DNA of 64,000 bases. Source: a virus. Taxonomy: Duplodnaviria > Caudoviricetes. The position numbers were made by a program, and so were the translations under genes. Below, in pieces: positions 9,001-30,684 of this stretch. Each line of letters starts with the position of its first letter. Within the stretch, counting starts at the first letter, position 1. The stretch lies in IMG/VR virus record IMGVR_UViG_3300028591_000121, positions 1-64,000 of that record; one strand, 5' to 3'. Below the pieces are notes generated by a model, which made no database searches, was not told where the DNA came from, and saw only the letters and a list, made by a program, of their open reading frames with translations.

Positions 9001-11353
9001 CTCTTTCCAGATAAACACCGGCTTCGTCAGTTTTTCTTCTACCGGTAGCTTTATCTATTTCATATTTCGCGTTATCTGCTTGTTTTTTAATTTCATTTGC
9101 AGCCTGAAGGGCTTCTCTTCGTGCAGTAACCAACTTTCCTGTTAACTTAGTACGATTTTCGATGTCCTTAATTTCTGCTTCTGCCTTCGCAATTTCTTCC
9201 TTTAAACTTTCTTGTGTGTTTTCTTCAGGTTGCCAAGGGACTCGAACAGCAATCGTCTTTGCTGATTGTGCTATTTCAGCCTGAGCTTGATTAACAGCCT
9301 GTTGCGAAGTAACGGCCTGAGCTTTTAATTTATTCTAATTCGCAGTATTCTCTGCGATTCTTTTTATTAATTCATCTTTTTTTTCTTCTAAAGCTGTTTC
9401 ATCGTCCTCTAATTCAGAGATTCTATCTCGTGGATCTTCCAATGCGGTATCATCCTAGTCGATCACGATATCTTCATCGCTATTATTAATTGCTTCAGCG
9501 ACATCTTCCAATGACGTGACTTTAGAAGCTTCTTCTTTTAACTCTTTCTTCTTTTCCCTCTACTCCGCTAATTCTTTTTTCAAATTATCTAAAGCTACGT
9601 TATCTTCCTCAATATCTTGAGTCTATGCTTCTATTAACATATTCCTTCCTTCGTTGGATATTCCAGAAGATGTAGAAGCACCGACTACTGGCTGTGTCGA
9701 ATCCGCAAGTTCATTATTTAACTGTCCTACCTTGCTAACCGCTTCTTGTGTCGCAACCGCAAATTGATTCATTCCTGCTGTCATCTGTCCTAAATAAATA
9801 TTAACACCATTGCCGGAACTAAAAGCCGCCGCAATGCTTTCAATATTTGCACGGATAGATTCAACTGAAGTAGTCAATAAAGCCATCTGAGCAGGATCGA
9901 TATTGATAATATTACCAGTGGTTTCTTTCAAACCCTACGCAGCCTTTTTCGAAATTCCTGTGAGGGCTTTAAAAGCACTATTGCTAATTTTGTTAAGAGT
10001 ATCTTCATCCATTTCACTGGTAATCTTAGCGATCTCGTTTTTTTCCTGTTCGGTCACTTGCTGATAAACCTTTACCAATGCACCGATCTCATTCTGAGCT
10101 ATCTTGCTCATGCCAGATAAAAGTCTCTTAAAATCACCAAGGCTTTCTACGACATTAGAAATATCAAATCCTTGAATTGATTCAAGAGCAGTCGTAATAT
10201 CTCCAGATCTTGAAACCACGTCATTTGTAAGACCAATTAATTGCTGTTGCATTTGTGAAAGATTCTGCACGGTGGCTTCAAGGGTTAACCCCTTCATCGC
10301 ATCATTAAAAGACTTTATCATTGTAGAAAGAGAATCACCAACTGGAGTCGCTTTATCTTGAATATCCGTAAGAGAATCAGATATCTGCTTTAACTGCTCA
10401 ACCGCTTGAATCTCAATCGTTTGATCTGCCTTAGTGCCATTTTTTATTTCTTGAACAAACTCCTAATATTTTTCTCTAATTCTTTTAAAAGCACTTTCGA
10501 ACGGGCTAACCATTCTATCCTAAATCTGACCCCAGTTATTTTCAAAATTCCTGAACTCATCACCGTTCATTACTTTCGCAAGAGATCTCATATTATCAAT
10601 CATCACTTGCTCATTAAGAGATCCTGCCTTCACCGCATCTGCATAACCTTGGTAAAGTCTAGCCATTAAATTTAAGGATTGCGTTGTCTGCTTATAAATC
10701 TGATTAGCTTTCCCGTCATCAGTCTTCGTAACAGAAAACGCAGTCTGCTATTGATCTACATGCTTTGACATTTTATCCATTGCAGATTCAAGATCTTGTA
10801 TTTGATTAAGAGCACTCTCAAAAGGTTTCTTTGTGACTATTCCTTCCTTGTTCATACTCCCATTAAAAATTCTTGCCAGCCTATTCATCTCTTTGCTGAA
10901 AGCTGCGATCTTTTCTTTGAAATCCGCAAGCGGAACAATATTATCTAAATCAACTGCCTTCCCGCTATCGATTGCATTCTTTACGTCTGCGCTGGTTGTG
11001 TTGAAAGCTTTCCCGATTCGTTCGATTTGTCCAACGACACCACTTAAATCCGCTTTGGCAAAGACAGATTCCATCTTAGTAACAGTTGCGCTGAATTTAT
11101 CGACACTTGTGGACATTTTGCCGAAATCGACAGTAGCGACACGACTAGCAAAGTCATCCAGTACCCTCGTTACTTGACGATTCATCCCGCTAATCACATT
11201 AACCATATCATTAATCTGAGTTTTCAGCGGAGATAAGTCAAGAGATTTGCCTGTTTTACTTTGGAAAGCGTCTACGCTTTTAGAAGCTTCCTGTAAACTT
11301 TTTATTAAACCAGATACATCAAGGTCTAAACTAGCAATAACTTCTTCTGCCAT
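1..11353 (-). CDS. Tail tape measure protein, >3,780 aa, runs off the left edge; continuous only with TAG read as a sense codon (Leu)
   Basis: ORF-track fragments 10748-11353, 9935-10321, 9623-9931, 8909-9133, 7343-8446, 6707-7324, 6401-6697, 5555-6190, 5108-5548, 4919-5107, 2909-4039 and 2621-2878 share one frame, and the fragment ends I checked are TAG. Coiled-coil composition; TP901-type tape-measure core at ~2909-4039 (EAVGTSLNTMIARL, AGTRQQN); hydrophobic segments at 2700-2950. Confidence 0.92.
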
Positions 11354-11381
11354 TCCCCATCACGTCCTTTCGTATTTTAAT

Positions 11382-11412
11382 AGTAGAGAGGACGTGTCGC
11401 ATCCTCTCTACT
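11382..11412 (-). terminator. Hairpin (possible terminator or processing site) upstream of the tape measure gene
   Basis: Inverted repeat AGTAGAGAGGA...TCCTCTCTACT. Confidence 0.45.
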
Positions 11413-11419
11413 GTCTTAC

Positions 11420-12037
11420 TCACTTATCGTTCTTTTTAAAATCAAAAACCTGACCATTCGTGTAAAGCTTGCCATCCTTTACGACAGGCCTATCTTCTCT
11501 TGCATTCCGATCATTCAGCAGATTAAGACTTCCTGCTGCTTCCTGGATCATTTCAATCTGCTTATTCATATCATCGGTATTAGAAACATCTCCAAGGAGT
11601 TTCTTAATAAAATGAGCAAGAGAATGCTGTTGATCATACTGTTCTTTTACAGCATCAATCATAAGATTAATCATCTCATCACACCGACTCCAGTCATCTG
11701 CAATCACTTCATAAATCTTATCCAGTACTTCTTCTGCTACCAACCAATCATACAGTTCCATCCAACTCTGGAAACCGCCAGTAAGATCCGCATTGATATT
11801 AGTATAGAAAGCGATCACTCCAATTGTCTGAACCAACGGCCATCTCCAACTAAGAGTGTACACTTCGTTCTCTTTATCTTCAATGGAAATAAACTGTACA
11901 ATAACCTGAGCAAGACGTTCTTTACTCTCATAAGAAATCCACTTCTGAACTTCGATAGTGTCTCCGCTCTTGGTAGTAACGTTTACAACTTCAGGCATCT
12001 TAATCATATCTTTAGTCACATTAAATTCCATACTCAC
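11420..12037 (-). CDS. Hypothetical tail-region protein (205 aa, no TAG)
   Basis: Intact ORF between the tail chaperone and tape measure genes. Confidence 0.75.
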   Translation of the reverse strand: MSMEFNVTKDMIKMPEVVNVTTKSGDTIEVQKWISYESKERLAQVIVQFISIEDKENEVYTLSWRWPLVQTIGVIAFYTNINADLTGGFQSWMELYDWLVAEEVLDKIYEVIADDWSRCDEMINLMIDAVKEQYDQQHSLAHFIKKLLGDVSNTDDMNKQIEMIQEAAGSLNLLNDRNAREDRPVVKDGKLYTNGQVFDFKKNDK

Positions 12038-12049
12038 AACCCCTTTACC

Positions 12050-12388
12050 TTAACTCTTCTTTTGATTCCGCTGACTTAAATGTCCGAACAGATCAGCCAG
12101 ACCTCTGTTCTGAGAAGTAACCTTCTGTCCACCTTCTTGAATCAGTGTCATCGGATTATGTTCCATAATCATATCCCAGGATTTCTCTACGAAGCTATTC
12201 CCCGCATAATTTGAAATCCCGTCATACGTAATCCTATGTCCAAGCTGTTCAAGAATATCTTCAAAGAATATATAATTCATCCGATTTATTTGTTTCTCGT
12301 CAACAACTCCAAGATATGTCGCAACAAGGGCAACAGCCTTGTCTAGACTTATTTCGCCCCCTGACTCTTGGGGGCCATCAGGTTTTTT
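12050..12388 (-). CDS. -1 frameshift extension (gpGT-like) of the tail assembly chaperone
   Basis: The -1 frame is open from the slippery heptamer A-AAA-AAC (12388-12382) through ...GEISLDKAVALVATYLG...MNYIFFEDIL to 12050. Confidence 0.75.
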   Translation of the reverse strand, partial: KKPDGPQESGGEISLDKAVALVATYLGVVDEKQINRMNYIFFEDILEQLGHRITYDGISNYAGNSFVEKSWDMIMEHNPMTLIQEGGQKVTSQNRGLADLFGHLSQRNQKKS

Positions 12389-12864
12389 AGCTTTTCTTCC
12401 TTCTCTTTAATCTTATTCACTCGAATAAAAATCTCCACTAGCTTATCGATTGTATCCTGTGTAATAAGATTATAGTTCGTCTTAACAAGCTCCTCATTAT
12501 CCGTAATCGCAATTAACCAGTCGAACGTAGCCTTATCTCCGTCTCGTCCGCCCAGGTCTTTCTCTGTAAAGTTAAGCAGCTCTCCAATCGGATACACTTG
12601 CAATACGTGATAAAAGTTCGCTGTCTTATTTCTAAAATATTCCTACTTGGTTGGGAATATCTCAATCGGAGTATTCCCGAACAGAACCATATTCTCAGGA
12701 TGACCCGTCTTCGGTAATTCCTTCTTTTCGGTTTCTGCGGAAGGAATCTCTTTCTTGTTTTGCTTTGGATCAGGAAGTTCTTTGTGTTCCTGTTCGGTAG
12801 ACGGTGTTTCAACCATCGGCTGTTCAGTGTCTGGGGTATCCTATTTCTTTCTCCTCGTTGCCAT
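12349..12864 (-). CDS. Tail assembly chaperone (gpG-like), 2 in-frame TAG
   Basis: ATG at 12864 with GGAG RBS; TAG at 12841-12843 and 12643-12645 (IFPTK*EYFRN); lies between the major tail and tape measure genes; slippery site near the 3' end. Confidence 0.75.
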
Positions 12865-12926
12865 CGTCCTTCAACTCCTTTAGATAAAAAGAAAATCCCT
12901 ATGCTTCTCACATAGGGTACATTTAT

Positions 12927-13190
12927 TTAGTCAGGATAACATACGTTCTGAAACTTCTTGTATGCATCCAGATAAGTTTCATGTTTATCTCCATTGTGAG
13001 TAATCTCATAATACATCCCGTCAGGAACAACTGTACTCAGTAAGGCTTTCCAATTCTGTAATGTCTTCGAAAACCACACAATGTATACGTCCTTTGCGGT
13101 GATTGCGAAATTATCTGTCTTCTCTGCATGACTGTTAAAGTATTCGCACACCAATTCCTTCGCCCTTTTAAACATAGCATCATTATCCAT
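12927..13190 (-). CDS. Small conserved phage protein (DUF6275-like)
   Basis: Motif VYIVWFSKTLQNWKALLST..DGMYYEITHNGDK.E.YLDAYKK recognised; flanked by hairpins, so it looks like an inserted gene. Confidence 0.65.
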   Translation of the reverse strand: MDNDAMFKRAKELVCEYFNSHAEKTDNFAITAKDVYIVWFSKTLQNWKALLSTVVPDGMYYEITHNGDKHETYLDAYKKFQNVCYPD

Positions 13191-13231
13191 TTCGATTCCT
13201 TCTTCCTTTATACTTTATACTCTATAAAGAC

Positions 13232-13256
13232 GGGAGACGGAATAAATCCGTCTCCC
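13232..13256 (-). terminator. Rho-independent terminator after the major tail gene
   Basis: 10-bp stem GGGAGACGGA-ATAAA-TCCGTCTCCC. Confidence 0.6.
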
Positions 13257-13269
13257 TAGATTAGACTGA

Positions 13270-14118
13270 TTAACCCCAGTCAACTTCGGTAGCGTCGCTC
13301 TTAACAACGATATTGCCATCGGCATCAAGAGGTTCGTAGCTCCATTCATAGGTACGGCCGTCAGCACGCTGAGGGTCAATAACGGAGAATGTGAGACCGA
13401 AGGTCTGTGCGCTCTTGTAGCTGGCGTTGATACCAGGGGTCTGAGTCACACGGACACGATAGTAGTAGATATGCAGCCAGCCCTTCAAGTTAGCGTCTTC
13501 GCAAGAACCACCGTCGGAATACACCGGGAAGTGCATGGCAAGAGCACCCTTAGCAGTGGTAGAAGTATTGCGGACGATAACACGATGAGCGTCCACGATC
13601 CGGCGATGGTAGCTCACACGGATCTCGTCACCGACAGTAGCATCAGCAGCGTTCAGAGTAATCTCGGTCTTGCCATCGGTATTAGCAGCCGCAGCGGTAA
13701 TTGCCACAGCGAACTTACCTTCGGCAGCAGTGGTAGCTTCTTCCAGGCCACGGATGGAAACGGAGTTAGCCTGCACTTCGTAAGGCAGAGTAATCTTCAG
13801 ACCTTCCTTAACTTCGAACCGCTTGCTCTCCAGCATGCCGATATCGCCAACGGAAACCTTTTCAGCATTAGCCAGTTCGAAAATGTCCAGAGTGAACTCA
13901 GAAGATTCGAAGCTGATTTCAACAGTAGAGTCGGTGTCGATGTGAGCCAGGGGCAGACGATACTGACCACCAGTAATATCCTAACCATTCAGAGTGAAGT
14001 TAGAGGAAGCGGTGTTCACCTTATCATAGGAGAAGACCGTGCCGTCGCAACGTTCAAAGTCAATGTTAGGAGTGTCGATAACATAGCCCTTCGCAATATC
14101 TAAATAAATTGCACCCAT
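13270..14118 (-). CDS. Major tail (tube) protein, 1 in-frame TAG
   Basis: ATG at 14118 with AGGAGG RBS; TAG at 13981-13983 (NG*DITGGQ); high-expression codon bias; position in the tail module. Confidence 0.8.
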
Positions 14119-14174
14119 ATTTTATTCCTCCTTGATTGGTATGGCGATCTATGAATCCGCCTAATTCATACCCG

Positions 14175-14651
14175 TCATACAGTCTCTTTATAAGAAAAGA
14201 CAACGTGATACCTTTTGTATCCCGCCATCTTTGTCCACTAGTCATAACTGTCTACAAAGCGAAACTTCATTCCAAACAAATGAGGTTCGCTTGTCTATAA
14301 AAGTTTTAATCTGTCCTTTATAAGTCTTGTTCTTTTACGAAGTCGATCCACAGGATCTGCGTCATAGAGATAATCATCCCGGACATACACATCAAAATGT
14401 TTAGACCGCATCAGGACTTCTTTATTTCCTGAATCAACATTCTCTCCGTCATACACTACGATACGCACTTTTTCATCCGTCAGCTATTCTCCACCGTTCT
14501 CATCTTCGAGCCAATACTTCTGGACAAAATGCAAAATGTTAATATCTTTTGGAAGCAACATCAGTTCCTGCATAATGGGATCGTCAAATATAACATATCG
14601 CAAAATGCTGTTCCAATTGTCATCCCATGTCCTTCCCATCATTGCACTCAT
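14175..14651 (-). CDS. Putative tail terminator/completion protein, 3 in-frame TAG (absent from the ORF track)
   Basis: MSAMMGRTWDDNWNSILRYVIF...GE*LTDEK...KLL*TS...YD*WTKMAGYKRY...ETV-TGA; 158 aa. Confidence 0.75.
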
Positions 14652-14664
14652 CTGTTTCACTTCC

Positions 14665-15180
14665 TTAATGAAATTTTATAAATGAACCAAAATCCACACT
14701 CAACAAGCGATTCTCTAGGATGGAAGTCTAGTCATAACTCTTCGCATTGGCGAGTGAATTTTCAAGAACTGGATGTCCTACTTTTAAATACTTCTTTATA
14801 GGATGAGCATGCTTTGCTGTACTGGTATGCTTGCTGTCAAGATGGTGTCCCCAGACTTGCGCTCCTGGTTTTGACATAGGGCCTTCTCCGCCACTCTCGT
14901 CATTACCCCATTCCTCAACGGCTGCCCTGTGAAGAACATGTTCTTCCGAACCAGGAATAACGCTTGCGCTACACTTGATCATTTCACCCTCTTGAGTTGG
15001 GGGATGTCCGTCAATGTAACCACGAACAGAGCTTGTGAAATCAAAGTCTCGCCAATCATCAGGCCTGTTAATGTTTAACTCTTTAATAAGACAAGACCCT
15101 AAGATATCCTGAACATCTTTCATTCCCTCTGTCTATGCGCTCATCATTTCGGAATGTAATCCATTCACGTCAATACCCAT
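14665..15180 (-). CDS. Putative neck/tail-completion protein, 2 in-frame TAG
   Basis: MGIDVNGLHSEMMSA*TEGMKDV...SYD*TSILENRLL...FH-TAA; extends ORF 14728-15123 at both ends. Confidence 0.7.
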
Positions 15181-15988
15181 TGTTATCAACTCCACCGCCA
15201 ACACGCTTACCGAATACACTCAGCACCCCATGCATTTTATCGATATGAACCTCAGCCGTAGAAATATCAACAACACGATAATCAAAAAGACCGATCTTAA
15301 ACTCGTCATCGATTCGAATCTTTCTCGTCTCGTTATTCCATTGCATATATACGGAGATCAGGTCGTTCGAGTTAATACCGGGCATGCCAGAAGAAATACT
15401 ATAATCAGGTCTGCCAGCGTACAGGGCATGGGATGTAGGAATATCTTTAACAATAATCTCATACTTTCCTGTCTCATCCAACTCCACTCCGTCTTTCTTT
15501 TCAGGCAATGCAAATGCGTATCTGTCGCTTGCGATTCTATGTTCTCTTCTGAATGTAAGATAGTCATTACACTCAACGGACTGAGTCGCTTGGTTGTTCG
15601 CATGGTTCTGTACATTCCAGTTCAGGAGATACAGTGCACCATCTTCCCGTATTGCATAATCCCCTTTATAAATCTCAACATTATGTTCAACCTTAAAGTT
15701 CGTACTCATATCTGAGTTACCGATCTTAGACTTCCAATCGATAGGAGTCTGCTGCGCTCTGATCCGATACGGTTCTTCTGGTTTGTTATACCAGTCATGT
15801 ATGATATCAAACCACCAGTTCACATAAGGCTTATCTTCATAAAGTTCGTTATGCCAATCTGAGTACAAGGTAGCAGGATCTCTGAACCTACGATTAGTTT
15901 TTATTTGAGGATTTGGACGTAAGGCTTCATCGTCGAAAGAATCCGCAGACTCAACTTCGCTTTTCCTCTTGTTCAAGATACGTCCCAT
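15170..15988 (-). CDS. Putative head-closure / head-tail joining protein
   Basis: Start MGRILNKRK with GGGGTG RBS; beta-rich; position in the head-tail module. Confidence 0.65.
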   Translation of the reverse strand: MGRILNKRKSEVESADSFDDEALRPNPQIKTNRRFRDPATLYSDWHNELYEDKPYVNWWFDIIHDWYNKPEEPYRIRAQQTPIDWKSKIGNSDMSTNFKVEHNVEIYKGDYAIREDGALYLLNWNVQNHANNQATQSVECNDYLTFRREHRIASDRYAFALPEKKDGVELDETGKYEIIVKDIPTSHALYAGRPDYSISSGMPGINSNDLISVYMQWNNETRKIRIDDEFKIGLFDYRVVDISTAEVHIDKMHGVLSVFGKRVGGGVDNNGY

Positions 15989-16280
15989 CGCCAACACCCC
16001 CGTATACAATACACTGCGGAAGTCGGCCAACTTCTCCTGCTTTATCCAAAAGCTTGTGTTTGATCTTAGCAAATCTAGCCCAGGTCTCATCTGCCCATTT
16101 CTCTTTTGGCAGACCACCTGTCGCTTCATAGACAAGATCTTCAACATCAGTAATCATCCGCATCATATCATTTCTGATCATTTGCGTATATTCATCAAGA
16201 CTGTACATATAGTCTGCAACAGGCATCAGCTTTTCATTGCGGTATACAATATGTACACTCAAGTTCTTTTTCTCTTCCAT
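15951..16280 (-). CDS. Hypothetical protein (109 aa)
   Basis: Intact ORF with RBS, overlapping the downstream gene. Confidence 0.65.
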   Translation of the reverse strand: MEEKKNLSVHIVYRNEKLMPVADYMYSLDEYTQMIRNDMMRMITDVEDLVYEATGGLPKEKWADETWARFAKIKHKLLDKAGEVGRLPQCIVYGGVGDGTYLEQEEKRS

Positions 16281-16299
16281 TTTCCTACCGCCTCTTCCC

Positions 16300-16725
16300 T
16301 TACAGCATGTTGTACCTAGTCATCTTATGCCACATCTGGGTCTGTTCAGAACGTGCGAGATTCAGCATTTCAGTTACATTCTTGAACGGTTTGTCTCCGT
16401 TCGTAACGCTCATAGCATCTGTGGTATAGCTCTCTGTTTCACTCAGATCTCCCCTGACTTTATCAAGGAACTATAACTGAGCGGTCGCAAGAATATACCG
16501 CTGTTCGTCAAGCATAAAGTCTGCTTTGAAATACTGAGGTTTCCCATCTTCATCGAGAACAACAAGATCTTCAGAATATTCCGCAGATTTCCCAGCCATG
16601 ACATAGAAATGCTCAATCGCATCCAGAATAAAGTCGCACATATCATCCAGGTCTAAATCTTCTGGAACTTCCTGCCATTCGATTCGGTTGACAAGTTTCT
16701 TTGTCTACTTAATCAGATCTGTCAT
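16300..16725 (-). CDS. Putative head-tail adaptor, 2 in-frame TAG (absent from the ORF track)
   Basis: MTDLIK*TKKLVNRIEWQEVP...TAQL*FLDKV...SYTTDAMSVTNGDKPF...NML-TAA; GGAG RBS. Confidence 0.75.
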
Positions 16726-16739
16726 TCTCTTTCGCTCCT

Positions 16740-17171
16740 TTATTCTCCGCCGTGGAGTTTCGCATCAACGACTTTCATCTTGCTTGCAGGAAGATCCATT
16801 TCGGTAGCGATCCGTTCGATCCTACTAAACAGAACCCGGTCAAACTCGATTTCGTCGAGCCACTTCTTGACATTAGCAGCAGAAGCCCGGAGATGCTTCC
16901 TGATATCATCGTCATCCATGAACACAGGATTCTCTTCCATAACAATACCGCTGCCTTCAAGAATCTCTTTGGCTTCTTCGGGATTTTCAATAGTCAGATG
17001 ATTGGAAGAAAAAACTGAACAGATAGAAGACAGATAATCAATCTCGTCCTTAGTCATCGGAAGAAAAGATCCCGCCTTAATCAGTCGTTCTTTTTCATCA
17101 AGCATTTTGACAGCAATATCAAAAGTTGTGTTATTCCGCACACGAATTTTATCACTATTCATTTCCTTCAC
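16740..17171 (-). CDS. Hypothetical protein downstream of the major capsid gene
   Basis: Intact ORF with GGAG RBS. Confidence 0.7.
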   Translation of the reverse strand: MKEMNSDKIRVRNNTTFDIAVKMLDEKERLIKAGSFLPMTKDEIDYLSSICSVFSSNHLTIENPEEAKEILEGSGIVMEENPVFMDDDDIRKHLRASAANVKKWLDEIEFDRVLFSRIERIATEMDLPASKMKVVDAKLHGGE

Positions 17172-17227
17172 TCCTCTAAAGAAGAGAGGACTGCCGAGGG
17201 AAACTCAGCAGTCCCCGTAGTATTAAC

Positions 17228-18253
17228 TTAGTTGGACAGATCCTTGTACACGGACATATAGGGCTGTTCGCCATACACGAAACCGCAACCAAATTCCTGA
17301 TCCAGACGGATTTCCCAAGTGAGATCGTCGATGTGACGAGCTTCCATAGACTGCACCGGACCCTTGGTGAAGACCTTGAGCGGACGCATATCAGCAGAAG
17401 CAGCGGTCGGGAAGATGAACATAACCTTGGGATTAAGGACAGTCTCAGAGATGCTGCCGTCCTTATAGGGGTTCATCATCGTAGCCACGTCAGCACCAAG
17501 ATAACGACCAATGTAGCCGTTCTGGTTCTGTTCAAGGATAATGTTGTCAGCGAACTGCTGGGTAGCAGGATTCTCGACAGTCTTGAAGCCAGTCAGTTCA
17601 GCAAGCTGCTGAGTGGTCTCAATATCGCCAACGATACCAACGCCACCATAACGCATCCAGTGACGAATCAGAGGATCAATACCAGACTTCAGAACACCAG
17701 AACCTTCAGCATAGAAGGGAGAACCCGCAGTCAGAGTACCAGTCCTGTTGTAGTTGGCTTCGAGAACTTCACGGATATAGCCGAGCTTGGCGTTCTCCAT
17801 CTTCACAGCGGCATCAGACACAAGATCAGCCATCTTAACCACACCACGATTGATGTCAGCAATCGTCATGAAAGGACGAGCGGACACAGTCAGGGAGTCA
17901 AGAGTGACGGTCTTGTGAGCGATACGGCTACGAGGAGTCGTAGAACCCATAGCCTGGATATAAGCCTGAATGCCTTCCAGACCAACAGTAAACTTAGGAG
18001 TGTCGTTCACACCCAGAACCTTATAGTCAGCAATGCGATTCAGGAAATCGCTCATGGGCTTAACCAGTTCATCCACAGAGAAACCAACCAGCTGGGCCAG
18101 TGCATGCATATTCATGGGATTGGGATCTTCCGCAATCACCTGAAGCTATTTATTCAGCTTATCTAAATCACCAGAGTCAATACGTTCCTTGCGGGTCTCT
18201 GCGACCATAATCTTTACCGCAGGATCGTCACGACGGATAATAATATCAGACAT
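17228..18253 (-). CDS. Major capsid protein (341 aa), 1 in-frame TAG
   Basis: ATG at 18253 with GAGGTG RBS; TAG at 18146-18148 (DKLNK*LQVIAED); strong codon bias; follows the scaffold and decoration genes; downstream hairpin at ~17188-17214. Confidence 0.85.
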
Positions 18254-18282
18254 ATATTTTCACCTCGATATTGTTTTGTTAA

Positions 18283-18729
18283 TTATTGAACCTTGGCAAC
18301 AGTGCCACCAGCAACAGGCTTCATCTTATCGCCGGCCGCGACGGTGTCGTACAGGGTCTTGTCGACACTCATGTAAACCATATCGCCCTTAACAGGCTGA
18401 CGCATCTTCACGTACTTGCCAGCAGCAACAGCATACATGGTCTCATCATATTCCAGAGTGTCATCAATTTGCCAGTCATTCTCCGTGAACCAGAGATTCT
18501 CAGCATTATTAACAAGAACATTCATAGCGAGGAAATACAGACCCCACTGATAATACTTGTTCTCCATACGCATAACGCACTTAGCTGCGTCAGTGTTGTC
18601 TGCGGCTTCAAGCTTTGCAACCTTATTATTATTGTTGATCTTTACGAAAACGCCATTCTCAAGCGTTTCAGCTGCGACATGATGACCATCATATACGTGA
18701 CCATCCTATCTTTTCATAAATCCAGCCAT
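18283..18729 (-). CDS. Putative capsid decoration/stabilising protein, 1 in-frame TAG
   Basis: MAGFMKR*DGHVYDG...ENGVFV...; GAGGTG RBS; sits directly upstream of the capsid gene. Confidence 0.7.
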
Positions 18730-18752
18730 AGTGTTTCACCTCATTCTTTTAT

Positions 18753-20162
18753 TTACCGTCCAGAAATAATTCCACCGAAAGTCATATCATCAATAATCCC
18801 AGCATAACTGGAAAAGATTTGACCAACGGGATTGGACTGATCTTTATTTTCAGATTCTTCTGTAGTCTTCTTGGCAGCCTGTGCCACTGCTACACTGAGA
18901 TCTGCAAGCTTCTCATAATCCAGAGAAGCAATCGCCGATTTAACCTCTTCATCTTCAATATTCAGCCCCATAGTTTCCGCATAAACAGTAGCCTTATTCA
19001 GCTTCTGATCATGCTCCATCTTCTGGGCGGCTTCTTTATATTGATTCAGTTCGGCTTGAATTGCATCATAGTCTTTGACCTTCTCCTGAAGACTTGCGAT
19101 CATAGACTCTTGTTCCGCAATCGTTTCCTGCATCCGAGTAATACGAGTCACGTAAGTTTCCTCGACTGTTTCGATAACCCGATTCATTTCAGGCGGTCTG
19201 TCGCTGACTTCTTCGGCCTTGGCTTCTTCCTTATTTTCTTCGGGAGTCTCTTCTTTCTTCTCGTCCTCATTAGCGGGGGCTTCCTCTGCGGAAGCTTCTT
19301 CTTTCTTCTGCTCTTCCGTATTGTCTTCAGGCTTTACCTCTTCGCCTTTCTCGTCAACGGCAGCATTAGCTTCAGCAGCCACATTGGGTTCGTCTTCAAA
19401 ATCAGATACACGCTCAACAGTCTGTTCACTTGCGGTGTCTATCATTACTTCTTCGACAGTAGAAGCATTCGCTTCATTCACTTTGTCCATTTCTTCGTTC
19501 ACCTCGTTTGTATCTGTCCCAGACTTCTCTACTGTTTCGCTGATAATTTGAGTCGGTTCAGTATTATCCGTAAGCTCCGCTTCTGCTTCCGCAACCTAAT
19601 CAAGAGCAACCGCTTCAGGATATGCGGGTACAGAGACGATTGCCATCCCATTTAACGTATTTGTTTCTGCGGCATCCACATACATAACTTTGCCGTCATA
19701 AATTACGTGATCAGGATCATACGTCAACTCGAAAGAAAAGCATAAAATTCCTTTGTCATACATTTCCTTCACTGCTGCACAGATATCGGATTCTCTTTTC
19801 GGAATTCTAACTTCTCCGTATAAACATGTGCCAAACTCATCCTTTACCTTTTCAAAAGAATTGAGAGCGAAACTCCCAATCTGGTCAGTCCCGAAAGTAT
19901 GTGTAATACGATTAAACTTATGTCCAAGCTGCTCGTACCTTCCGGCCTAAAGATTCATCTTATCTGCGTACAAAGGAGTACAGTCATATTTCTCAGGGTT
20001 CGCAACAATCTCGTCAATAAATGCTTCTGTAACACCCTGTTCATTTCTGTTCCCGTTCGTAGACTACATACGCATCTTCACTGACATGAATTGGTTATTA
20101 GTCTGCTGTTCGGCCAGCAAAACATCAGAAGCCAGAACAAACATACTATTCCGACTATCCAT
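18753..20162 (-). CDS. Prohead protease-scaffold fusion (469 aa), 3 in-frame TAG, all in the protease domain
   Basis: N-terminal domain ...FSFEL...GMAIVSVPAYPEAVALD*VAE resembles HK97-type proteases; C-terminal half is an acidic coiled-coil scaffold; possible nested start at 19490. Confidence 0.8.
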
Positions 20163-20269
20163 TTGCTGTCACATTCCTTTCCTTCTCACCTAAAATAATA
20201 GGCGGTCTTATTTTTCGGTAAGATGGAATTTATACTTCTAAGGGAGTATAACTCGCCTTTAAAAATATC

Positions 20270-21961
20270 TTATGTCTGCGCTTCAGAACCTGACGGGTTC
20301 GAAGGCTTAGGCTGTCTCCCGGTTTGAGACTTAGCGGGATCGCTTGTGCGCTCGTTATAGTCTTCAGTCGGTCTGCCTCTTGGATTCTCCTCATCTGAGT
20401 CGTTATTTTTAGTACGGGATTTGCGGTAATAAGTCTTACCGTTGCGACGATAAGTCTCATAACCTTCCCTGTTTTCTGGCTCATTATTTACCGACTCAGT
20501 CGTATTATCAGAAGAAGTCTCAACTAAACTGGGATCAACCAATACTTCGTCAACCCCGGTTCGCTTCTCTTCCTTCCTGCGCTCTACTTCCTGATCGATG
20601 TCAAAGCCATGAGTCTGAAGCAGAGTCTTCTTGGAGATGACTCCTTTGTCATAGAGCTTCGTGCAGATTTCCTGGAACTGTTTTGTACCAGCGAGATCTA
20701 CAGGCGGGAAAGTAAACTGAGGGATCTGATCGGGTGCACTGTGAGGAATAGCAGTGAAGCCACGCTCGTTCAGTCTCTCATTTATCTTGTTCATAATCTC
20801 GCAGAACTTATCTCGTGCTTTCCTGATACGGATTGCAGCCGTCTGCATGGAAACCTGAGCCGTAGCAAATGTCGCACTGGTTGTGGTCTGTCCGCTTACA
20901 ATAATCTCAGAGATACCACCCGCAGAAAGAATCTGTGAGTTGACACTGTTATACTTATCGAAGTGGAAGATCTCATCCTAGTCCGGCTGCTTGAACTCAG
21001 CGGTTGCCCATGAGTTGGTTACCGCAAGAGCAGATCCTTGCATAGCCCGTTTGAATGTCTCGAATACTTTACCCTACTGTTCCTTGTTCGGGAGTACGTC
21101 CCCGTCAGGGTCACCGTACTTAACATGAAGGAAGCTTCGAGTACCGAGCTTTAAGTTGCTGTCTTCCCAGTCGCTAATGATTGACTTCTTTTTCAGCGGG
21201 AGAAGACACGCAGCGATCATCGGAATCGCATACCTCATCCAGTCTTCCTTAGTGTCCTGAAAGGTGAATGTGTTATGCGGATTCAGCTGAACGAATTTCT
21301 TTCCGTCCCTGACACCCTCTGCGATTTCCGGGGGATAACCCGCAAGTCTCAGATTAATGTCACTGTCTTTCAGATAATTTTCCGCAGATAAATTACTGCG
21401 CTGTAACCCAAGATTAGCCAGAAGCTTTGTGCAGTCGAATTCAAGCATCGGCTCGAAGTCAACTGCGATATTTGCAATCCTGATATATTCAGGGGGAAGT
21501 GTAATCTAACGACCATCACTAAACTAATAAATATACACATTAGCGTACTTGTGGTACTGGTAGAAGATACTCTCCATCTTTTCACGGAGTCGAATCCTCT
21601 CGTAATACTTCTCATACTTCTGCTTTACTTCTTCGTTTGCCCCAATCAATTTCCAGGGGTCAGCTATACTAAACGGAGTATATACTTGTTTAATTAATCC
21701 ACGATATATAGGGTCTGCGTCAACGTAGTAATCACTCTATGCAAACTAGTCATAAATATATAATTCTTTATTACTCAGGATGGTCTCATAAGAAATCTTA
21801 TTCCTTACCTATCCACGTCCCTGAATAACAGGATTGTTGAAAGTAATCGTTGGAGCTGCGTTCGGGTCGAAGGCAACTTCACCGTTCATCCTCTATTCCG
21901 TACCATCTGGGACAACAGAAGGTACTTCTTTAGGCCGTCTGAAAATGTCGAAGATTCCCAT
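20270..21961 (-). CDS. Portal protein (563 aa), multiple in-frame TAG
   Basis: ATG at 21961 with GGAGG RBS; ...IYD*FA*SDYYVDAD..., NVYIY*FSDGR*ITLP, PNKEQ*GKVF join fragments 21074-21448 and 20270-20848; follows TerL. Confidence 0.85.
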
Positions 21962-21978
21962 AACTACGCCTCTCCTCC

Positions 21979-23697
21979 TTAATTCCAAGTTCCTACAATG
22001 CCAACGTCATCGACTTCGCCATTGCGTATTTTTTGTATCCGCTTGTTCTCAAGTTCTGAGATATATCTCAGTCCCATAGAAAGTGCGGAGTAACGGTCTT
22101 TATGCTGATTATATTTTGCCGTATCGTATATAACGTTTCCGGCAACAGTCTCTTTGGCTACGATCTGTCCAAGCTCCACTTGTAATGCATCGGCTTCAAG
22201 AAAGATCGCTTTTTCTTCTTTCGTCAGGGTACGACTCTTAATTGTCCTGCCCTCATCGTCTTCTTCGATAAGTCTGTCCTCAACAAGCTTTCTGCTGGAG
22301 ACAGGCAATTCGATCTTCCGTTGCTCAAGATTCACAGTAGTCACGGTAACCAACTGTTGGTTCAGTTTATTGTCCGCAACAACAGGACGAAGAAGCGGAA
22401 CTGCATTCCTGATCGTTGAGTGTTCCGTATCCACAACAAGTGGCGGATACTCTTTCCTCGTAACAGGATCAATCCACGGTTCCGATAAGAACAGCGGGAA
22501 CGCATCACCCAGACCACGATGGTCGAATACAACCTTGATCGTGTTCGGAAAAGACACGAGAAGTCTCCTGACTTCCTCAGCCAACTTATCAAGTCCTCGA
22601 CCGTGGAAAGTTCTAATCTGAACAAGCCGGGTAAGGTATGTCCCGTCCTCACGCTCGATCAGCTTCAGAACACAGATAGCTGCGTTGTCAGCGTCCTTCG
22701 CCTGAGAAGTAGCCAAGTCAACACTGATCACGTACTCCGAAGTAGACTTCGGGGGCTGAGTCAACTCGACATTCTCAAGGACACGACAAGGTTCAGTCAA
22801 CTCATGCGGGAAGACTGCTCCTTTTTCTGATCCCTTAAAGATAGCTCCGTACTCCATTTCAAATGTCTGCTGCGGAAGACTATCCTTCTGCTCCTCAATA
22901 AACTTCTCTCTCGCAAGCCCAAGTCTCTAAGCTGACTTATAATCCTAGGCACAGGCAAAGTAGTCTTTACTCTCCCGGTCAAGCTTTGACATCTTATTCA
23001 GAGCATTAACGAAGGAAGTATAATAGTAGCTTGACTTGAAACATGCGGAAGTAATACTGATCATCTTGGAATCATAATCCTCGAAGTGCGCCTGATGGCT
23101 AACCATACGGGTCGTGTTCAGAACAGGGTTAACGACTTTCTCGATATCCTTCTTTTTCACTTCAGGAGCTTCGTCGACAATAATAATCTTTGCACGGTTA
23201 CCAAGGAAACTCCGCATAGAATAAGACTCAATCTTAGATCCGTTCTTAAATCTGCATCTGCCCTTCTCATTACTTACCTGAACAGGAGAATGGTTCTTGG
23301 CTTCGATCTCTCGCAGAATATTCGGGATCTTAATCAACTCGTCATCGATCTTTTTCAGAACGAGTGTCGCCTGTTGCGCTGTGCCGGAGACAACTGCAAT
23401 CATACTTCCGGGATACAGGACAGCCAGAGCGCAAGCACACAATGCGGTAATCCATGTTTTGCCGTAACCACGAGACTGAGTTAAAAGAGATCTGGCGCAA
23501 TTGCCGATCTCTCTGGCTTCGATTCTCTGCGTATCCTTCTACTCGATACCAAAGTATTCCATAATAAAGATATCGAGATGGGTACGCCAGAACCAGATTT
23601 GCTTTCGCCATGCTTGAAAGTTCTTGATCTCTATTCCGCAGACCTCAATAGGGGGTCTGGCTTCAGCTGCTGGTATTTCTTTATTTAACTGCTCCAT
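21979..23697 (-). CDS. terL: Terminase large subunit (572 aa), 3 in-frame TAG
   Basis: Q-motif region YFGIE*KDTQ, Walker A SRGYGKTW, Walker B IIIVDEA, nuclease ISVDLA...KDRYSA; TAG at 23539-23541, 22945-22947 and 22927-22929. Confidence 0.92.
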
Positions 23698-24593
23698 CAC
23701 TCATAACCACCAATCGATGTGCCGACAGCGGCAATAGTATGACGGAAGTCAGAAATAATCATGTCAACCTGATCCGGCTCGAAAGTAAAGTCATTCTCCC
23801 CTAGGAGTCCAGTCGATTCCAGTCTCTCGATAATCACTCCAAGCGAATCCTCGTCAGTAACACCGACCTTGTTCTTAGCCTGGACACAGGCGGCGAACGT
23901 TGTCATCTTGGAATATTCCTCATATAGAGCGTGTGCGGCTTTGCACTCCTGCATATTAATTTCTCCACGCCTGAACTTATCGTCAGCGATATCCGCATTC
24001 AATGAAGCCTTCAGAAGTTTCCGTGTCGAGTCAACAAGGTTCAAGTCATTCATATCAATTCCGTAAGCCTTAACATATCCGTCAAAGGCTTCGGTCTATT
24101 CTCTGATCTGACTGTCTGTATAATAACCTCTCCACGTCTTATCCCACTTGGGCTTCTCAGAAGTTTCAGGCGAGTCTGTCTATGCTTCGGGATTATTCAG
24201 CGCAGTAGTCGAAGCTTCGTCATGATCCTCGTACTGGTAGTACGCTACATTATTCATGATCGAAAGCCATGTCTGGGCTACGATCTGGATCGCTGCCTTC
24301 TGACGTTTCGTCTCGTCAGTAGCCTTCAGGATCAGATCGCTCGTAGACATTGTCTTCTGCGCTTTTACTTTACAAGCTTCCCAATACTTATCTTCCCAGT
24401 GCCTGTTGTTTTCATAGCAGTACCTTACGACATCTTCTTTCGTCTTCAGAGATTTCTTTGCACACTCTTTACACCAGATGTCATGATAAGACTGGGATTT
24501 CCATTCTTTGTTCATAGCGAAATCTCCAAGAGGAAGAACTTTGCCGCATTTGATACAGTACTTACCGACAAGCGTTTGTCTATTTCCTGCCAT
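23697..24593 (-). CDS. Zn-finger protein upstream of TerL (possible small terminase), 2 in-frame TAG
   Basis: CxxC...CxxC N-terminus; joins ORFs 24180-24593 and 23697-24053 (NPEA*TDS, QIRE*TEAF); TGATG overlap with TerL. Confidence 0.7.
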
Positions 24594-24617
24594 TTGCTTT
24601 CCCCCTTTTGGTATAAG

Positions 24618-24652
24618 AAAAGCCCCGAAGGATTTATTCCCTTCGAGGCTTA
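24618..24652 (-). terminator. Rho-independent terminator after tRNA(CAT)
   Basis: AAGCCTCGAAGG...CCTTCGGGGCTTTTCTT on the minus strand. Confidence 0.6.
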
Positions 24653-24656
24653 TAAC

Positions 24657-24727
24657 TAGCGAGAGGAAGACTCGAACTTCCACCTTATGCTTATGAGGCA
24701 TACGAACTTCCATTGCTCTTTCCCGCT
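24657..24727 (-). tRNA. tRNA with CAT anticodon (Met, or Ile2 if lysidine-modified)
   Basis: Acceptor AGCGGGA/TCTCGCT; anticodon arm TATGC-CTCATAA-GCATA; T arm GGAAG-TTCGAGT-CTTCC. Confidence 0.85.
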
Positions 24728-24793
24728 ATATAAAGGAGAACTTTCGCTCTCCTGTTTTTATTGAGTATAACGGTTTACCGTTATATGTTAATC

Positions 24794-24850
24794 TACGGAC
24801 AACCGATGAGTCGAACATCGCCACCGAAAGTCACCACTACGCCACCCGTA
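24794..24850 (-). ncRNA. tRNA-like element lacking an anticodon arm
   Basis: Closing stem TACGGGTGGC/GTTGTCCGTA; D-loop-like TAGTGGT; canonical T arm CGATG-TTCGACT-CATCG. Confidence 0.4.
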
Positions 24851-24928
24851 TTATACAGCATATAACAGTCGGAAACCACAGATGATACGGGTATCTCCTG
24901 TGGCGAGACTTACGTCTCTGATAACTCT

Positions 24929-26179
24929 TTACAGAATGATCGGATACACACACTTCCTGCCGTATCCTTTCTCGATAACCATTGCCACTGCACCGGGCTG
25001 TCCACCCAATTCTTTACTCTGAGCATAGCAGTCAACTCCGCATAAAGAAGGAACACGAACAATATAGCTCCTGCCATCCTTCGTCATACCTGACTGCATC
25101 GTCACTTCATTGTGCAGATGTCCGCAAACAAAGAAGTCTATCGGCGTTCCATATAGATTAACAGTATCTCTTGCGATATCTGAAATAGTCTTATATGAAG
25201 CTCCATCACCGTGGAGCAGTAAAAAGTTATAACCTTGAACCTTTGCCAATACTCGTCTATTCGTATTCGGATTAATAATAATGTTCGGGTGAACCTTCAG
25301 CCGTTCCTGAAGATACCACATAATAATCCGCTCCATGTTTTCTTCCTCAAACTGTCTTGCTTTTGATCCAAGCGGACGAATCTCTGAGTGGTTGCCGGTA
25401 CACGCATGTACCTTCACAACACTCACATAACTCGACAGCCTTGTAAGCCAGACAGCAAGATACTCGCTAAGGTGAATCGTAGAATCAACAATCCCGTACT
25501 TCAATCTCATAAGCTGAGAATCTCTTAACATTCCGTCAATCAGATCCCCAACCAACATAACCTCAACGGTATTAATCTTTTCTTTCTCGATAATCTCCTC
25601 AAGCTGTACCAAAAGATTTCCCATCCGCTGTTCAAACGTTGCGGGATTATAGAGATTCAAGCAATCTCCATCCAATCCGCAGACAGTAAACTCAGAACCG
25701 TAATGAAAATCACCAAGAGCCACGACAAGAGAACGACTCTCTTCATCTACTGGACTCCACGGAATTATCCTCTCAACATTGATCGGCTTTAAATTCTTAA
25801 TCGCTTCAGCAACTACTTCCTGTAAAGATTGGCTTCTAGATTCGGCACGAAGTTCCGCACGAATCTCTGTACGGAGATCACGAATCTTCTGCCGTTCTAT
25901 AAAACCATTTGTGTCTGCTTCTGGGATTGTTGCTGCAACTCCATCCTTGGATTTAACCACTTCTTCTGAGGACGAATCCCTGAACTTCAGTACACCAGCC
26001 TCGTCAGCTAATGCAATGCCAACGCCGGCTTTTCGTAAGGTGTCTGGACTCATCTGGAGTCCATAATTATTTACAATCTCCGACCAGTCATAATCGGAGA
26101 CACCTGACTTCTTATTCTATATATCGGAGACAAGCTGTCTCTTACCTTCTTTATCCAACACATCGAAGTTTGCTTCCAA
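24929..26179 (-). CDS. Calcineurin-like metallophosphoesterase, 1 in-frame TAG near the N-terminus
   Basis: Motifs GDFHYG, VGDLIDG, TGNHS, LHGD, GHLH; TTG start at 26179 with GAAGGA RBS; TAG at 26117-26119. Confidence 0.85.
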
Positions 26180-26196
26180 TATTCCTTCACACCCTT

Positions 26197-26460
26197 TTAA
26201 TCCACCGTGTAATACTTCTTGTAAAGACAACCTTTCGGATGATCGTCGTTACTTCTTCTCCATGCCCGTCTCGCACACTTTTTGTAAAAGCTCTTCGTGT
26301 CGCTATAGTCGAGCCATTGGATGTGGTTCACCCGCTCCTCGTTATAATAGAAGTTCCTGTTATACCAACCGGGATACTGGGCGATCTATTTGCGTCTTTT
26401 GTCCTTCAGGTACTTTTGTCTACGTCTATACGCTCTGCTTCTGCCAGCCTGTTCAAACAT
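26197..26460 (-). CDS. Small basic hypothetical protein (87 aa), 1 in-frame TAG
   Basis: MFEQAGRSRAYRRRQKYLKDKRRK*IAQYPGW...YTVD-TAA with GGGGG RBS. Confidence 0.55.
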
Positions 26461-26743: not shown

Positions 26744-26864
26744 AAAACAGACCAAGCCTTCTCCCAACAGTCTGCCGTGAGCCACACCTTCCGTTATTTA
26801 GCCACGGACTACGGCTTTAACAAGATGGCTCGTCCCTAATATGTATTTAAAAATAAATCAGGAG

Positions 26865-28763: not shown

Positions 28764-28818
28764 ACCTTTTTCCTTTCTCGACCCAGCGGTCAGTCCTTTA
28801 TACCTTTACAATAAATCC

Positions 28819-29145
28819 ACGGCACGAAATAAATAGATTAACAGTCTATTGCAAAAGCGAGTTGCTGTGTGTGCCGTACAATTAAACTCGGTACTTAAAT
28901 TGATAGATTAAAAGTCTATTGCTTGAAGCTTGTTTGCTGTACGTACCGAATAAAAAACTTGTATTAAATACACGCTAAAAAGTCACGGCGTAGAAAAAAT
29001 AAAATACAATGGCACAGAGGTAAAAGATCTGTTATTATAAATTTATGTAATGGTTTGCAGTATACGCCGTTCGATAAATGTCAAGGCACTTATATAATAT
29101 TTTCTAATTGCACAGAAATCATATATCGGTTGCTGTTAGTGCCTT
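28819..29145 (-). ncRNA. Array of four small hairpin RNA-like repeats (closing stem + AC(A/T)GCAA + internal stem-loop)
   Basis: Units 28819-28877, 28888-28949, 28985-29070 and 29083-29145; the 7-8-bp closing stems differ in sequence but each pairs perfectly; the AC(A/T)GCAA motif follows the 5' strand in all four. Confidence 0.75.
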
Positions 29146-29149
29146 ATAG

Positions 29150-29224
29150 TACGGGTGGTGGGATTTGAACCCACAAAAGACAAACATTTAGAGTGTTCCG
29201 CATAGGCCGTTCTGCTACACCCGC
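29150..29224 (-). tRNA. Amber suppressor tRNA (anticodon CTA) with a tRNA-Leu-type body
   Basis: GCGGGTG-TA-GCAGAACGGCCTATGC-G-GAACA-CTCTAAA-TGTTT-GTCTTTT-GTGGG-TTCAAAT-CCCAC-CACCCGT-A; anticodon at 29189-29191. Confidence 0.92.
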
Positions 29225-29996: not shown

Positions 29997-30407
29997 TTAG
30001 GCACAGGGAGAACCTGGGCTGTATACTTCTTCCCAACGTTTATTATTGGCTTCTACGATCTTGGCAACCGCTCTGTCCTAATACGAGGAAACAGTAGCGA
30101 CTGCAATCTGATATCTTTCCGCCACATCACTCATCCCATACCCGTCCATCTACATGTCTACTGTCTGCCGTTCTGACTGTGAAAGTCCGCACGTCTCAAT
30201 CTAGTTATCCAGATCAATAAACGTACACATTCTTTCCGTATCCATAATTGAAGTTCCCGCAGATTCGATAATCCCAAAAGGGGAACTCAACTAGTCGTAC
30301 TGGCGATCCTACTCGCTCCGCTGGATAATAAGTCCTGCAACGATTCGGGGTTCACTCAGCGGTACATAACCCCAGTTGTCAACAATCGTGTCATTCTTTC
30401 TTGCCAT
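29997..30407 (-). CDS. Sigma-70 region-4/HTH regulator (136 aa), 5 in-frame TAG (absent from the ORF track)
   Basis: MARKNDT...RSE*DRQYD*LS...IDLDN*IETCGLSQSERQTVDM*MDGYGMSDVAERYQIAVATVSSY*DRAVAKI...-TAA; HTH pattern. Confidence 0.8.
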
Positions 30408-30684
30408 CAGCACCGTCTCCCTTTTTTGTCTTGGGAGACTTCTTCAGCCTGTCGAGTTCTGCGTCAGCGTCATCCAGAGCAGCTTGCAAACATGCGACCT
30501 CTTCCTCTGATTTCGCAAGTCTGCCAAGGCATCCGACAATATTATCCAGGTTATTCAGCAGGAGATTCTTCAGTGTCTCCTTCGCCTGGGCTACGCCGGA
30601 CTTCCTGCGAAGCGCATTCTCATATTTCAACTGAGCATCTTTCAGTTCAGTCTCAAGCTTCTTCATATCGACAATCGTCATCAT
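30391..30684 (-). CDS. Small coiled-coil hypothetical protein
   Basis: Intact ORF within the operon. Confidence 0.65.
   Translation of the reverse strand: MMTIVDMKKLETELKDAQLKYENALRRKSGVAQAKETLKNLLLNNLDNIVGCLGRLAKSEEEVACLQAALDDADAELDRLKKSPKTKKGDGADGKKE

Follow-up and report, generated by a model that had tools for sequence, protein, structure and literature searches.

A tRNA gene with a CUA anticodon, located on the minus strand of the virus contig IMGVR_UViG_3300028591_000121 at positions 29150..29224, is very probably a functional amber suppressor that inserts leucine at UAG codons and belongs to a family of compact tRNA-Leu genes. The stretch analysed, hereafter the window, comprises the first 64 kb of this single 119,416-bp contig, which is rated 100% complete. 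On the evidence of alignments with homologous proteins, TAG behaves as a leucine codon in this genome, and glutamine is excluded. The affinities of the sequence identify its source as a large Clostridia phage rather than one of the crAss-like or Lak type, because the terminase large subunit (TerL) is nearest to those of Clostridium phage c-st (32%), SPbeta-like and phiCD211-like phages, and portal relatives are found in metagenome-assembled genomes of Clostridia, two of them within contigs of 269-300 kb. Sequencing runs containing the stretch derive from gut samples of sheep, cattle and goat, and the hosts would be Clostridia of the gut or rumen.

The tRNA and the genes with in-frame TAG codons, the latter obtained from a survey of open reading frames (ORFs) or from PHROG matches, are as follows.

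29150..29224, minus strand: tRNA(CUA) with a compact (type-I-like) tRNA-Leu body, 75 nt including the discriminator (Rfam, ARAGORN, folding, model R1 and covariation)
1..26250, minus strand: late (structural and packaging) module, genes with in-frame TAG (ORF survey, TAG as sense)
20270..21988, minus strand: portal gene, 8 in-frame TAG (PHROG 2739)
21979..23700, minus strand: terminase large subunit gene, 3 in-frame TAG (PHROG 2)
29997..30413, minus strand: small ORF, 5 in-frame TAG (ORF survey, TAG as sense)
1-11359, minus strand: giant ORF of at least 3,786 codons with 27 TAG, running off the window start (ORF survey)

Residues aligned with TAG codons

When TAG is treated as sense, the longest open frame increases from 1,076 to 3,786 codons. 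Approximately 124 in-frame TAG codons are found across 59 crude gene calls of the genome. They are concentrated on the minus strand in the late module (1-26 kb), with a second concentration at 106-119 kb, and the long plus-strand genes located at 33-64 kb contain none. In addition to the portal and the terminase, PHROG matches identify a virion protein and an exonuclease.

The portal protein, with X at each TAG, was aligned with 120 homologues from the database. Of its eight TAG columns, six are occupied mainly by Leu, Ile or Thr: Leu prevails in three of them (92, 95 and 103 homologues, respectively) and is found in 117/120 homologues at residue 305, while the remaining two are shared between Ile and Leu (58 and 57) and between Thr and Leu (79 and 27). 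The other two TAG columns of the portal fall in a variable N-terminal stretch. The homologue P0002 (82% identity), the portal frame of which is fully open, features Leu at all six columns. Similar patterns are observed in other genes. For instance, two TAG columns of the terminase large subunit carry Leu in 56/57 and 60/63 aligned relatives, and the columns at residues 45, 81 and 98 of the ORF at 29997..30413 are mainly Leu.

All TAG-bearing ORFs of the genome were also compared by tblastn with 77 related IMG/VR loci. The residues found opposite TAG, in approximately 1,700 aligned cells, are Leu (852), Ile (118), Ala (95), Phe (79), Val (62), Thr (58), Met (54), Tyr (24), Ser (22) and Gln (11). 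For calibration, the same residue profile was obtained from the same alignments for true codons. The Leu fraction is 0.53 opposite TAG versus 0.50 for TTG, 0.50 for TTA and 0.43 for CTG. A preliminary description of the sequence had read TAG as leucine, and the alignments bear this out, as the homologue columns opposite TAG are mainly Leu and their profile is the same as that of the TTG, TTA and CTG columns.

Structure and family of the suppressor tRNA

The suppressor tRNA matches the Rfam family RF00005 with 54.8 bits (gathering score 29), and the cloverleaf is its minimum-free-energy fold. The acceptor stem is GCGGGUG/CACCCGU, in which pair 1-72 is a G.U wobble. The D arm features U8 A9, a 3-bp GCA/UGC stem and a 10-nt loop that starts with G13 A14 A15 and contains G18G19. 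The anticodon arm consists of a 5-bp stem and a 7-nt loop, CU-CUA-AA, in which U33 is present. The variable region (GUCUUUU, 7 nt) is unpaired and ends with U48, and the T arm is GUGGG-UUCAAAU-CCCAC. The discriminator A73 maps to position 29150, and the CCA end is not encoded. In an alignment of 47 family members that includes the suppressor, 96.6% of the cells are paired and double-sided changes occur in 14/20 pairs, a covariation reached by 0/500 shuffles. The gene is the sole CUA tRNA of the complete 119-kb genome.

All sequence elements listed in the preliminary description are present. Those read directly on the minus strand are the anticodon loop CT-CTA-AA, A73, the 3-bp D stem with G13/A14/A15 and U48, the acceptor GCGGGTG/CACCCGT and the 7-nt variable region GTCTTTT. 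The T arm had been said to differ by one base from that of the phage tRNA-Leu(UAA), and a single mismatch is indeed found in the comparison with the gene at 26970-27258. The glutamine hallmarks U1-A72 and G73 had been described as missing; they are absent from the suppressor and present in the tRNA-Gln(UUG)-like gene of the phage at 26490-26560.

ARAGORN labels the gene as 'tRNA-Pyl(cta)', the name this program gives to any tRNA with a CUA anticodon. tRNA-Pyl has a very short D loop lacking G18G19, a 3-nt variable loop, an anticodon stem of 6 bp and an atypical T loop. A tRNA-Pyl identity was rejected on account of the 10-nt D loop with GG, the 7-nt variable loop, the 5-bp anticodon stem and the T loop UUCAAAU. 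An Rfam scan up to E 10 beside the suppressor revealed no HDV-like (theta) ribozyme and no other family. Contigs from RNA libraries of three studies span the tRNA(CUA) locus and its flanks, and one contig is identical in sequence; they provide a weak hint of transcription, which might take place within a longer precursor.

The suppressor has no class II long variable arm (>10 nt with a stem), and U at position 35, which is an invariant A in 44 sense compact tRNA-Leu, gives an anticodon that is not one of the Leu anticodons (NAG/YAA). Identity was assessed from the core of the molecule, which combines a 3-bp D stem, G13.A22, G18G19 flanked by 2 and 3 loop bases, A15-U48 and A73. The published identity set of E. 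coli tRNA-Leu includes A73, A14, A15-U48 and G18G19 (PMC6614811, PMC9976931). A first reference set comprised 203 distinct tRNAs, none of them a suppressor, drawn from relatives and from two genomes of the host clade. In this set, the Leu-core combination is found only in tRNA-Leu (14/16), and A73 is present in 16/16 tRNA-Leu. In a larger set of 1,068 tRNAs, 1,051 of which are not CUA, the combination is found in 123/161 Leu, 9/17 CUA and 5/890 tRNAs of other isotypes.

BLAST of the suppressor against cultured phages was uninformative, with only short T-arm matches (T5-like tRNA-Leu and Streptomyces-phage tRNA-Lys). An IMG/VR scan for the D arm (U8-A9, GCA/UGC stem) gave 105 loci with 1,042 tRNAs. 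The D-arm motif of the family (U8-A9, GCA/UGC stem, loop GAA-N1-2-GGY-N-UA) is carried by 96 IMG/VR tRNAs, which have Leu anticodons in 89 cases (UAA 43, CAA 27, UAG 12, AAG 6, GAG 1) and CUA in 7; no other isotype is represented. The 14 nearest neighbours of the suppressor are all compact tRNA-Leu (identity 0.71-0.81; best other isotype 0.70). For instance, the variable loop and the T arm of a tRNA-Leu(AAG) at locus L150 are identical to those of the suppressor, as is the acceptor stem of a tRNA-Leu(UAG) at locus L177, G1.U72 included.

A covariance model (R1) was built from the 44 sense compact tRNA-Leu, with zero CUA members, and run on the tRNAs of the window, the relatives and the host clade. 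The scores are as follows.

Suppressor tRNA(CUA) of the window: 78.2 bits
Other short CUA tRNAs with the same D-arm type: 68-80 bits
Compact Leu(UAA): 63.6 bits
Type II tRNA-Leu: 48-55 bits
Best non-Leu, a host-clade tRNA-Phe: 52.0 bits
Window tRNA(UAU): 36.1 bits
Window tRNA-Met: 35.8 bits

The suppressor scores 26 bits above any non-Leu tRNA. Both this result and the distribution of the Leu core support the tRNA-Leu scaffold of the preliminary description.

The short variable arm needs a different interpretation from the one initially given. At 7 nt it is shorter than class II Leu arms, as had been noted, but it is not a truncation specific to the suppressor. Among distinct Leu members with the D-arm motif, the variable loop measures 5-8 nt in 53/69 (IMG/VR). 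As judged from these sequences, a short variable arm is the usual state in a large phage tRNA-Leu family. The family is further marked by A15-U48 and A73. G1.U72 is found in 29/69 members versus approximately 10% of other tRNAs, and the D arm features A9 and A12-U23 where G9 and G12-C23 are usual, a change that would be consistent with the 9-12-23 base triple covarying.

Compact tRNA-Leu are also encoded by known phages. A 74-nt gene annotated in cyanophage P-RSM6 (L241) and a 79-nt tRNA-Leu(UAA) of Sinorhizobium phage Phosso (L243) align over their full length with the suppressor and share A9 and the T arm, while the 75-nt tRNA-Leu(CAA) of Streptomyces phage Bmoc (L137/L242) shares A9, the T arm and the D arm. 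These genes have the sense anticodons UAA or CAA and reside in standard-code phages of other bacterial phyla; unlike the gene described here, none is a suppressor. When 121 Clostridia genomes were scanned with model R1, the top matches inspected were all compact and carried Leu anticodons. In one Clostridia locus, L258 (G074:C23), four genes of an 18-tRNA array are compact Leu (CAA, UAA, AAG and CAG), and three further Clostridia genomes (L259, L260 and L261) carry one lone compact Leu(CAG) each. CUA members form at least four lineages, and the suppressor of the window has its closest kin among sense Leu members, not among the other suppressors.

CUA tRNAs are found in 21/82 related loci, corresponding to 15 distinct sequences that differ in body type. 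Those of L057, L060 and L067 feature G73, G15-C48 and a long variable arm, and their D arm is up to 90% identical to that of tRNA-Ser. In these loci, as in L055 and L082, TAG occurs at Ser columns. In contrast, in loci with a CUA tRNA that has A73 and a Leu-type core, TAG occurs at Leu columns, whether the variable arm is long or short; long-armed Leu-type genes measure 92 nt in L013 and 87 nt in L035. At the sequence level, tRNA body type and the alignment meaning of TAG agree in both directions, Leu and Ser. The pattern suggests that the sister lineage uses a TAG=Ser code, which, like the code of the phage analysed here, is not table 15 (TAG=Gln). The portal of the Ser-type lineage (L055, L057, L060, L067 and L082) is approximately 40% identical. 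Other CUA tRNAs were seen in the L080:5620 region (74 nt, U73, D loop without GG) and in L225 and L237 (91-92 nt, long variable arms, different D arm).

Charging and alternative readings

The preliminary description had envisaged charging without a phage synthetase. The search of the complete 119-kb genome is in line with this, as no match was found to six Pfam domains (PF00133, PF13603, PF00749, PF00579, PF00587 and PF00472), covering the catalytic domains of class Ia, Ib and Ic synthetases, the class IIa core (tRNA-synt_2b), a domain specific to leucyl-tRNA synthetase (LeuRS) and a release factor domain. Because the phage encodes no synthetase, a host enzyme must charge the suppressor. LeuRS is the best supported candidate, since the tRNA has the features that published work on E. 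coli and Streptomyces calls for, and the host LeuRS would most likely be the enzyme that charges it with leucine. Bacterial LeuRS ignores the anticodon, relies on A73 and the core formed by the D and T loops, and can do without the long variable arm. For E. coli LeuRS, the anticodon and the long variable arm are immaterial, and a minimal tRNA-Leu devoid of both arms is still charged, provided that it keeps A73 and intact D/T-loop interactions (PMC9976931). In Streptomyces coelicolor, a single LeuRS charges a natural type I tRNA-Leu(CAA), provided that the variable loop has at least 5 nucleotides, including nucleotide 48 (PMC6614811).

In the proposed scheme, a compact tRNA-Leu would have acquired the CUA anticodon, for which a single base change from CAA suffices. 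U33 together with A36-A37-A38 is typical of amber suppressors that act efficiently and of tRNAs with N6-isopentenyladenosine at position 37 (i6A37). The loop CU-CUA-AA of the suppressor would favour both efficient reading of UAG and i6A37 modification. The suppressor sits at the entrance of the late module and on the same strand, with the module (1..26250) lying downstream. It would allow the TAG-containing late, lysis and structural genes to be translated, with Leu at TAG, while the TAG-free early and replication genes would be independent of it.

Several points weigh against a leucine-inserting suppressor. Alignments cannot fully separate Leu from other hydrophobic residues, and Ile is the second commonest residue opposite TAG. 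The six-feature signature of the Leu core was picked after viewing the data, though it agrees with the identity set published for E. coli. Plain identity to the first set of 203 tRNAs is not Leu-specific, since Gly, Lys, Met and Leu all fall within 0.65-0.76; the architecture test, the D-arm scan and the covariance model were used in its place. Position 20a is C in the suppressor and A in all 44 sense compact Leu members, and A20a was essential in an E. coli selection for leucylation (PMC9976931). Moreover, a LeuRS normally limited to type II tRNA-Leu is reported to have required the LSD domain of Streptomyces before it accepted the type I form (PMC6614811), so that acceptance of the suppressor by the host LeuRS may not be guaranteed. 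The suppressor would also have to compete with termination at UAG, because host-clade genomes encode release factor 1 (RF1), which was found above the curated cut-off in 4/4 genomes tested. Neither an anti-RF1 function nor a factor favouring suppression over termination was identified. Finally, no promoter-like site is present ahead of tRNA(CUA) on its own strand, and the scan for promoters and terminators gave nothing above shuffles.

Three other readings were weighed. The recoded phages in the literature searched all read TAG as Gln (PMC10607447; pipelines in PMC9610469), and close database relatives appear to have been translated with Q at the portal TAG positions (P0001), which would favour a Gln-inserting suppressor of the 'code 15' type, derived from a tRNA-Gln(CUG) and charged by glutaminyl-tRNA synthetase or by glutamyl-tRNA synthetase plus amidotransferase. 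The alignments already contradict this reading, with 11 Gln against 852 Leu. In addition, the suppressor features G1.U72 and A73, unlike both the tRNA-Gln-like gene of the phage and the tRNA-Gln of the host clade (U1-A72, G73), and its D arm is known from the IMG/VR scan only in Leu or CUA tRNAs. The probability of this reading is close to negligible. Less improbable, but still unlikely, is that UAG is read as another or an ambiguous residue, either Tyr, the tRNA of which is also a class II body with A73, or Ile, Met or Phe through a relaxed synthetase, with TAG being tolerated at hydrophobic sites. The D loop also resembles that of host-clade tRNA-Tyr, C20a departs from the consensus of the Leu family, and Ile, Ala, Phe and Val account for approximately one fifth of the residues opposite TAG. 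However, the TAG profile is indistinguishable from that of true Leu codons, TAG occurs in nearly invariant Leu columns (e.g., the 117/120 column of the portal), and Tyr is found opposite TAG in 24 cells only. Reference tRNA-Tyr, moreover, are all long-armed, mostly have G15-C48 and mostly have 4, not 3, bases after G18G19.

The gene might also be no working UAG decoder but a decoy or tRNA-like element, either part of a module of Ro-like protein and small RNAs or a bait for tRNA-targeting defences, with UAG being read by other means. The tRNA has small structured RNAs, grouped together, and the Ro/TROVE-like gene (PHROG 850) as its direct neighbours, and some recoded phages carry no suppressor tRNA (PMC10607447). 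Against a decoy stand the cloverleaf, which is complete and covarying and the 7-nt anticodon loop of which is canonical, the recurrence of CUA tRNAs at the same place in relatives, where Leu or Ser type tracks the meaning of TAG, and the lack of any other CUA tRNA in the genome; we regard this reading as very improbable. A leucine-inserting suppressor of the compact tRNA-Leu family is the reading we retain.

Genomic setting and significance

Downstream of the suppressor, the order is small structured RNAs, the Ro/TROVE-like gene, a split tRNA-Leu(UAA), tRNA(UAU), tRNA-Asn, the tRNA-Gln-like gene and tRNA-Met. The small ORF at 29997..30413 lies approximately 0.8 kb upstream, on the same strand. 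The principal neighbours are as follows.

27315-29145, minus strand: Ro/TROVE-like gene and non-coding DNA (PHROG 850 'RNA-binding protein', E 1.9e-128)
26970-27258, minus strand: tRNA-Leu(UAA) with a group I intron of approximately 207 nt between U34 and A35 (Rfam RF00028, ARAGORN intron mode)
26864-26952, minus strand: tRNA(UAU), 89 nt, 20-nt variable arm with a 3-bp stem, G1.U72
26490-26560, minus strand: tRNA-Gln(UUG)-like atypical cloverleaf, U1-A72, G73

Approximately 330 nt of non-coding sequence separate the Ro/TROVE-like gene from the suppressor, directly downstream of the latter, and the 27315-29145 region may be a module of a Ro protein and Y-RNA-like sequences within the tRNA cluster. 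At the other end of the contig, a 1,120-codon frame with 3 TAG is found at genome positions 116055-119414 (minus strand). If the genome is circularly permuted, this frame and the giant frame at 1-11359 may constitute one protein of approximately 4,900 residues.

The split tRNA-Leu(UAA) is of type II, its variable arm being long, and serves as the phage's own sense comparator. It was missed by ARAGORN in default mode and by the Rfam tRNA model because a group I intron interrupts the gene. The RF00028 match (49.9 bits, E 1.6e-10) just misses the gathering score of 50, and the intron is kept in the relatives L001 and L002 (44.9 bits). Exon 1 (27224-27258), the intron (27017-27223) and exon 2 (26970-27016) were delimited by eye, and the splice sites were provisionally placed by likeness to cyanobacterial tRNA-Leu introns. 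The site between U34 and A35 matches the insertion site of the cyanobacterial and plastid tRNA-Leu intron. The label 'tRNA-Stop(tta)' given by ARAGORN in intron mode was rejected, as a loop CU-UAA-AA follows from the U.G pair that marks the 5' splice site and from the G that ends the intron; two further introns called at 84.6 kb and 102.3 kb are apparently spurious. The RNA-library contigs, which leave the stretch partly uncovered, contain no junction of exon 1 with exon 2, a negative that speaks neither for nor against splicing.

The tRNA-Gln(UUG)-like gene has a 7-nt D loop without GG and a T loop (GGCAGUA) that replaces UUCRANY. It is detected in the window neither by ARAGORN, even at a lowered threshold, nor by Rfam; the copies in L001 and L002, which are nearly identical to it, reach 40.4 bits with Rfam. 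The 89-nt tRNA(UAU) is kept in L001-L003, and the tRNA(UAU) of other relatives measure 74-77 nt. ATA codons of the phage align with Ile (Ile 0.34, Val 0.20), as do ATT and ATC.

The suppressor can be compared with several known systems. As in recoded gut phages (crAss-like, Lak, phAss-1 and others; table 15) with tRNA-Sup(CUA), the CUA tRNA is phage-borne, the phage lacks a synthetase, only late, structural and lysis genes contain TAG, and the host has the standard code and RF1. The two cases differ in the residue (Leu, not Gln), the tRNA body (compact tRNA-Leu, not tRNA-Gln) and the phage, here a large siphovirus of Clostridia type. The type I tRNA-Leu(CAA) of S. coelicolor (PMC6614811) similarly has a short variable loop and coexists with type II tRNA-Leu. 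That tRNA, however, is a chromosomal sense gene with a 5-nt loop and C48, whereas the suppressor, known from sequence, is phage-borne and has a CUA anticodon, a 7-nt loop and U48 paired with A15. In the classical laboratory suppressors supP/Su+6 of E. coli, the anticodon of a tRNA-Leu is changed to CUA, yet LeuRS continues to charge the tRNA, which inserts Leu at UAG. These suppressors are mutant type II host tRNAs that act partially, whereas the phage gene is natural, conserved and compact and serves approximately 100 TAG codons. TAG=Leu is also known from chlorophycean mitochondria and those of Scenedesmus (NCBI tables 16 and 22), in which it applies genome-wide; here, it concerns part of a virus genome, and the host ends its genes at TAG. 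TAG=Leu in phages was not found in the literature searched, in which phage late-gene TAG recoding is only TAG=Gln. A natural, conserved Leu-type suppressor derived from the compact tRNA-Leu family, with TAG=Leu in Clostridia phages, has no counterpart in that literature.

Table 15 is the code with which published surveys and annotation pipelines translate TAG-recoded phages. Translation of this phage and many relatives with it would place a wrong residue at approximately 100 positions, many of which are conserved Leu of portal, terminase and tail proteins. The body type of a CUA tRNA (Leu, Ser or Gln) predicts the meaning of TAG and provides a sequence-level diagnostic, which matched the alignments in the Leu and Ser lineages. 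tRNA-Leu with short variable loops, earlier documented for Streptomyces and mitochondria, are common in phages, and a compact natural Leu amber suppressor is a candidate genetic tool. More tentatively, compact tRNA-Leu might represent a distinct lineage that spread with phages and is accepted by the LeuRS of several phyla, from which amber suppressors were recruited repeatedly and in which the compact form is perhaps adaptive. Should this be true, the compact form could evade host enzymes or defences that recognise the class II long arm, the tRNA of the window would be a minimal Leu suppressor of natural origin, suitable for use in Gram-positive hosts, and TAG=Leu would be a recurrent, so far unannotated genetic code of phages.

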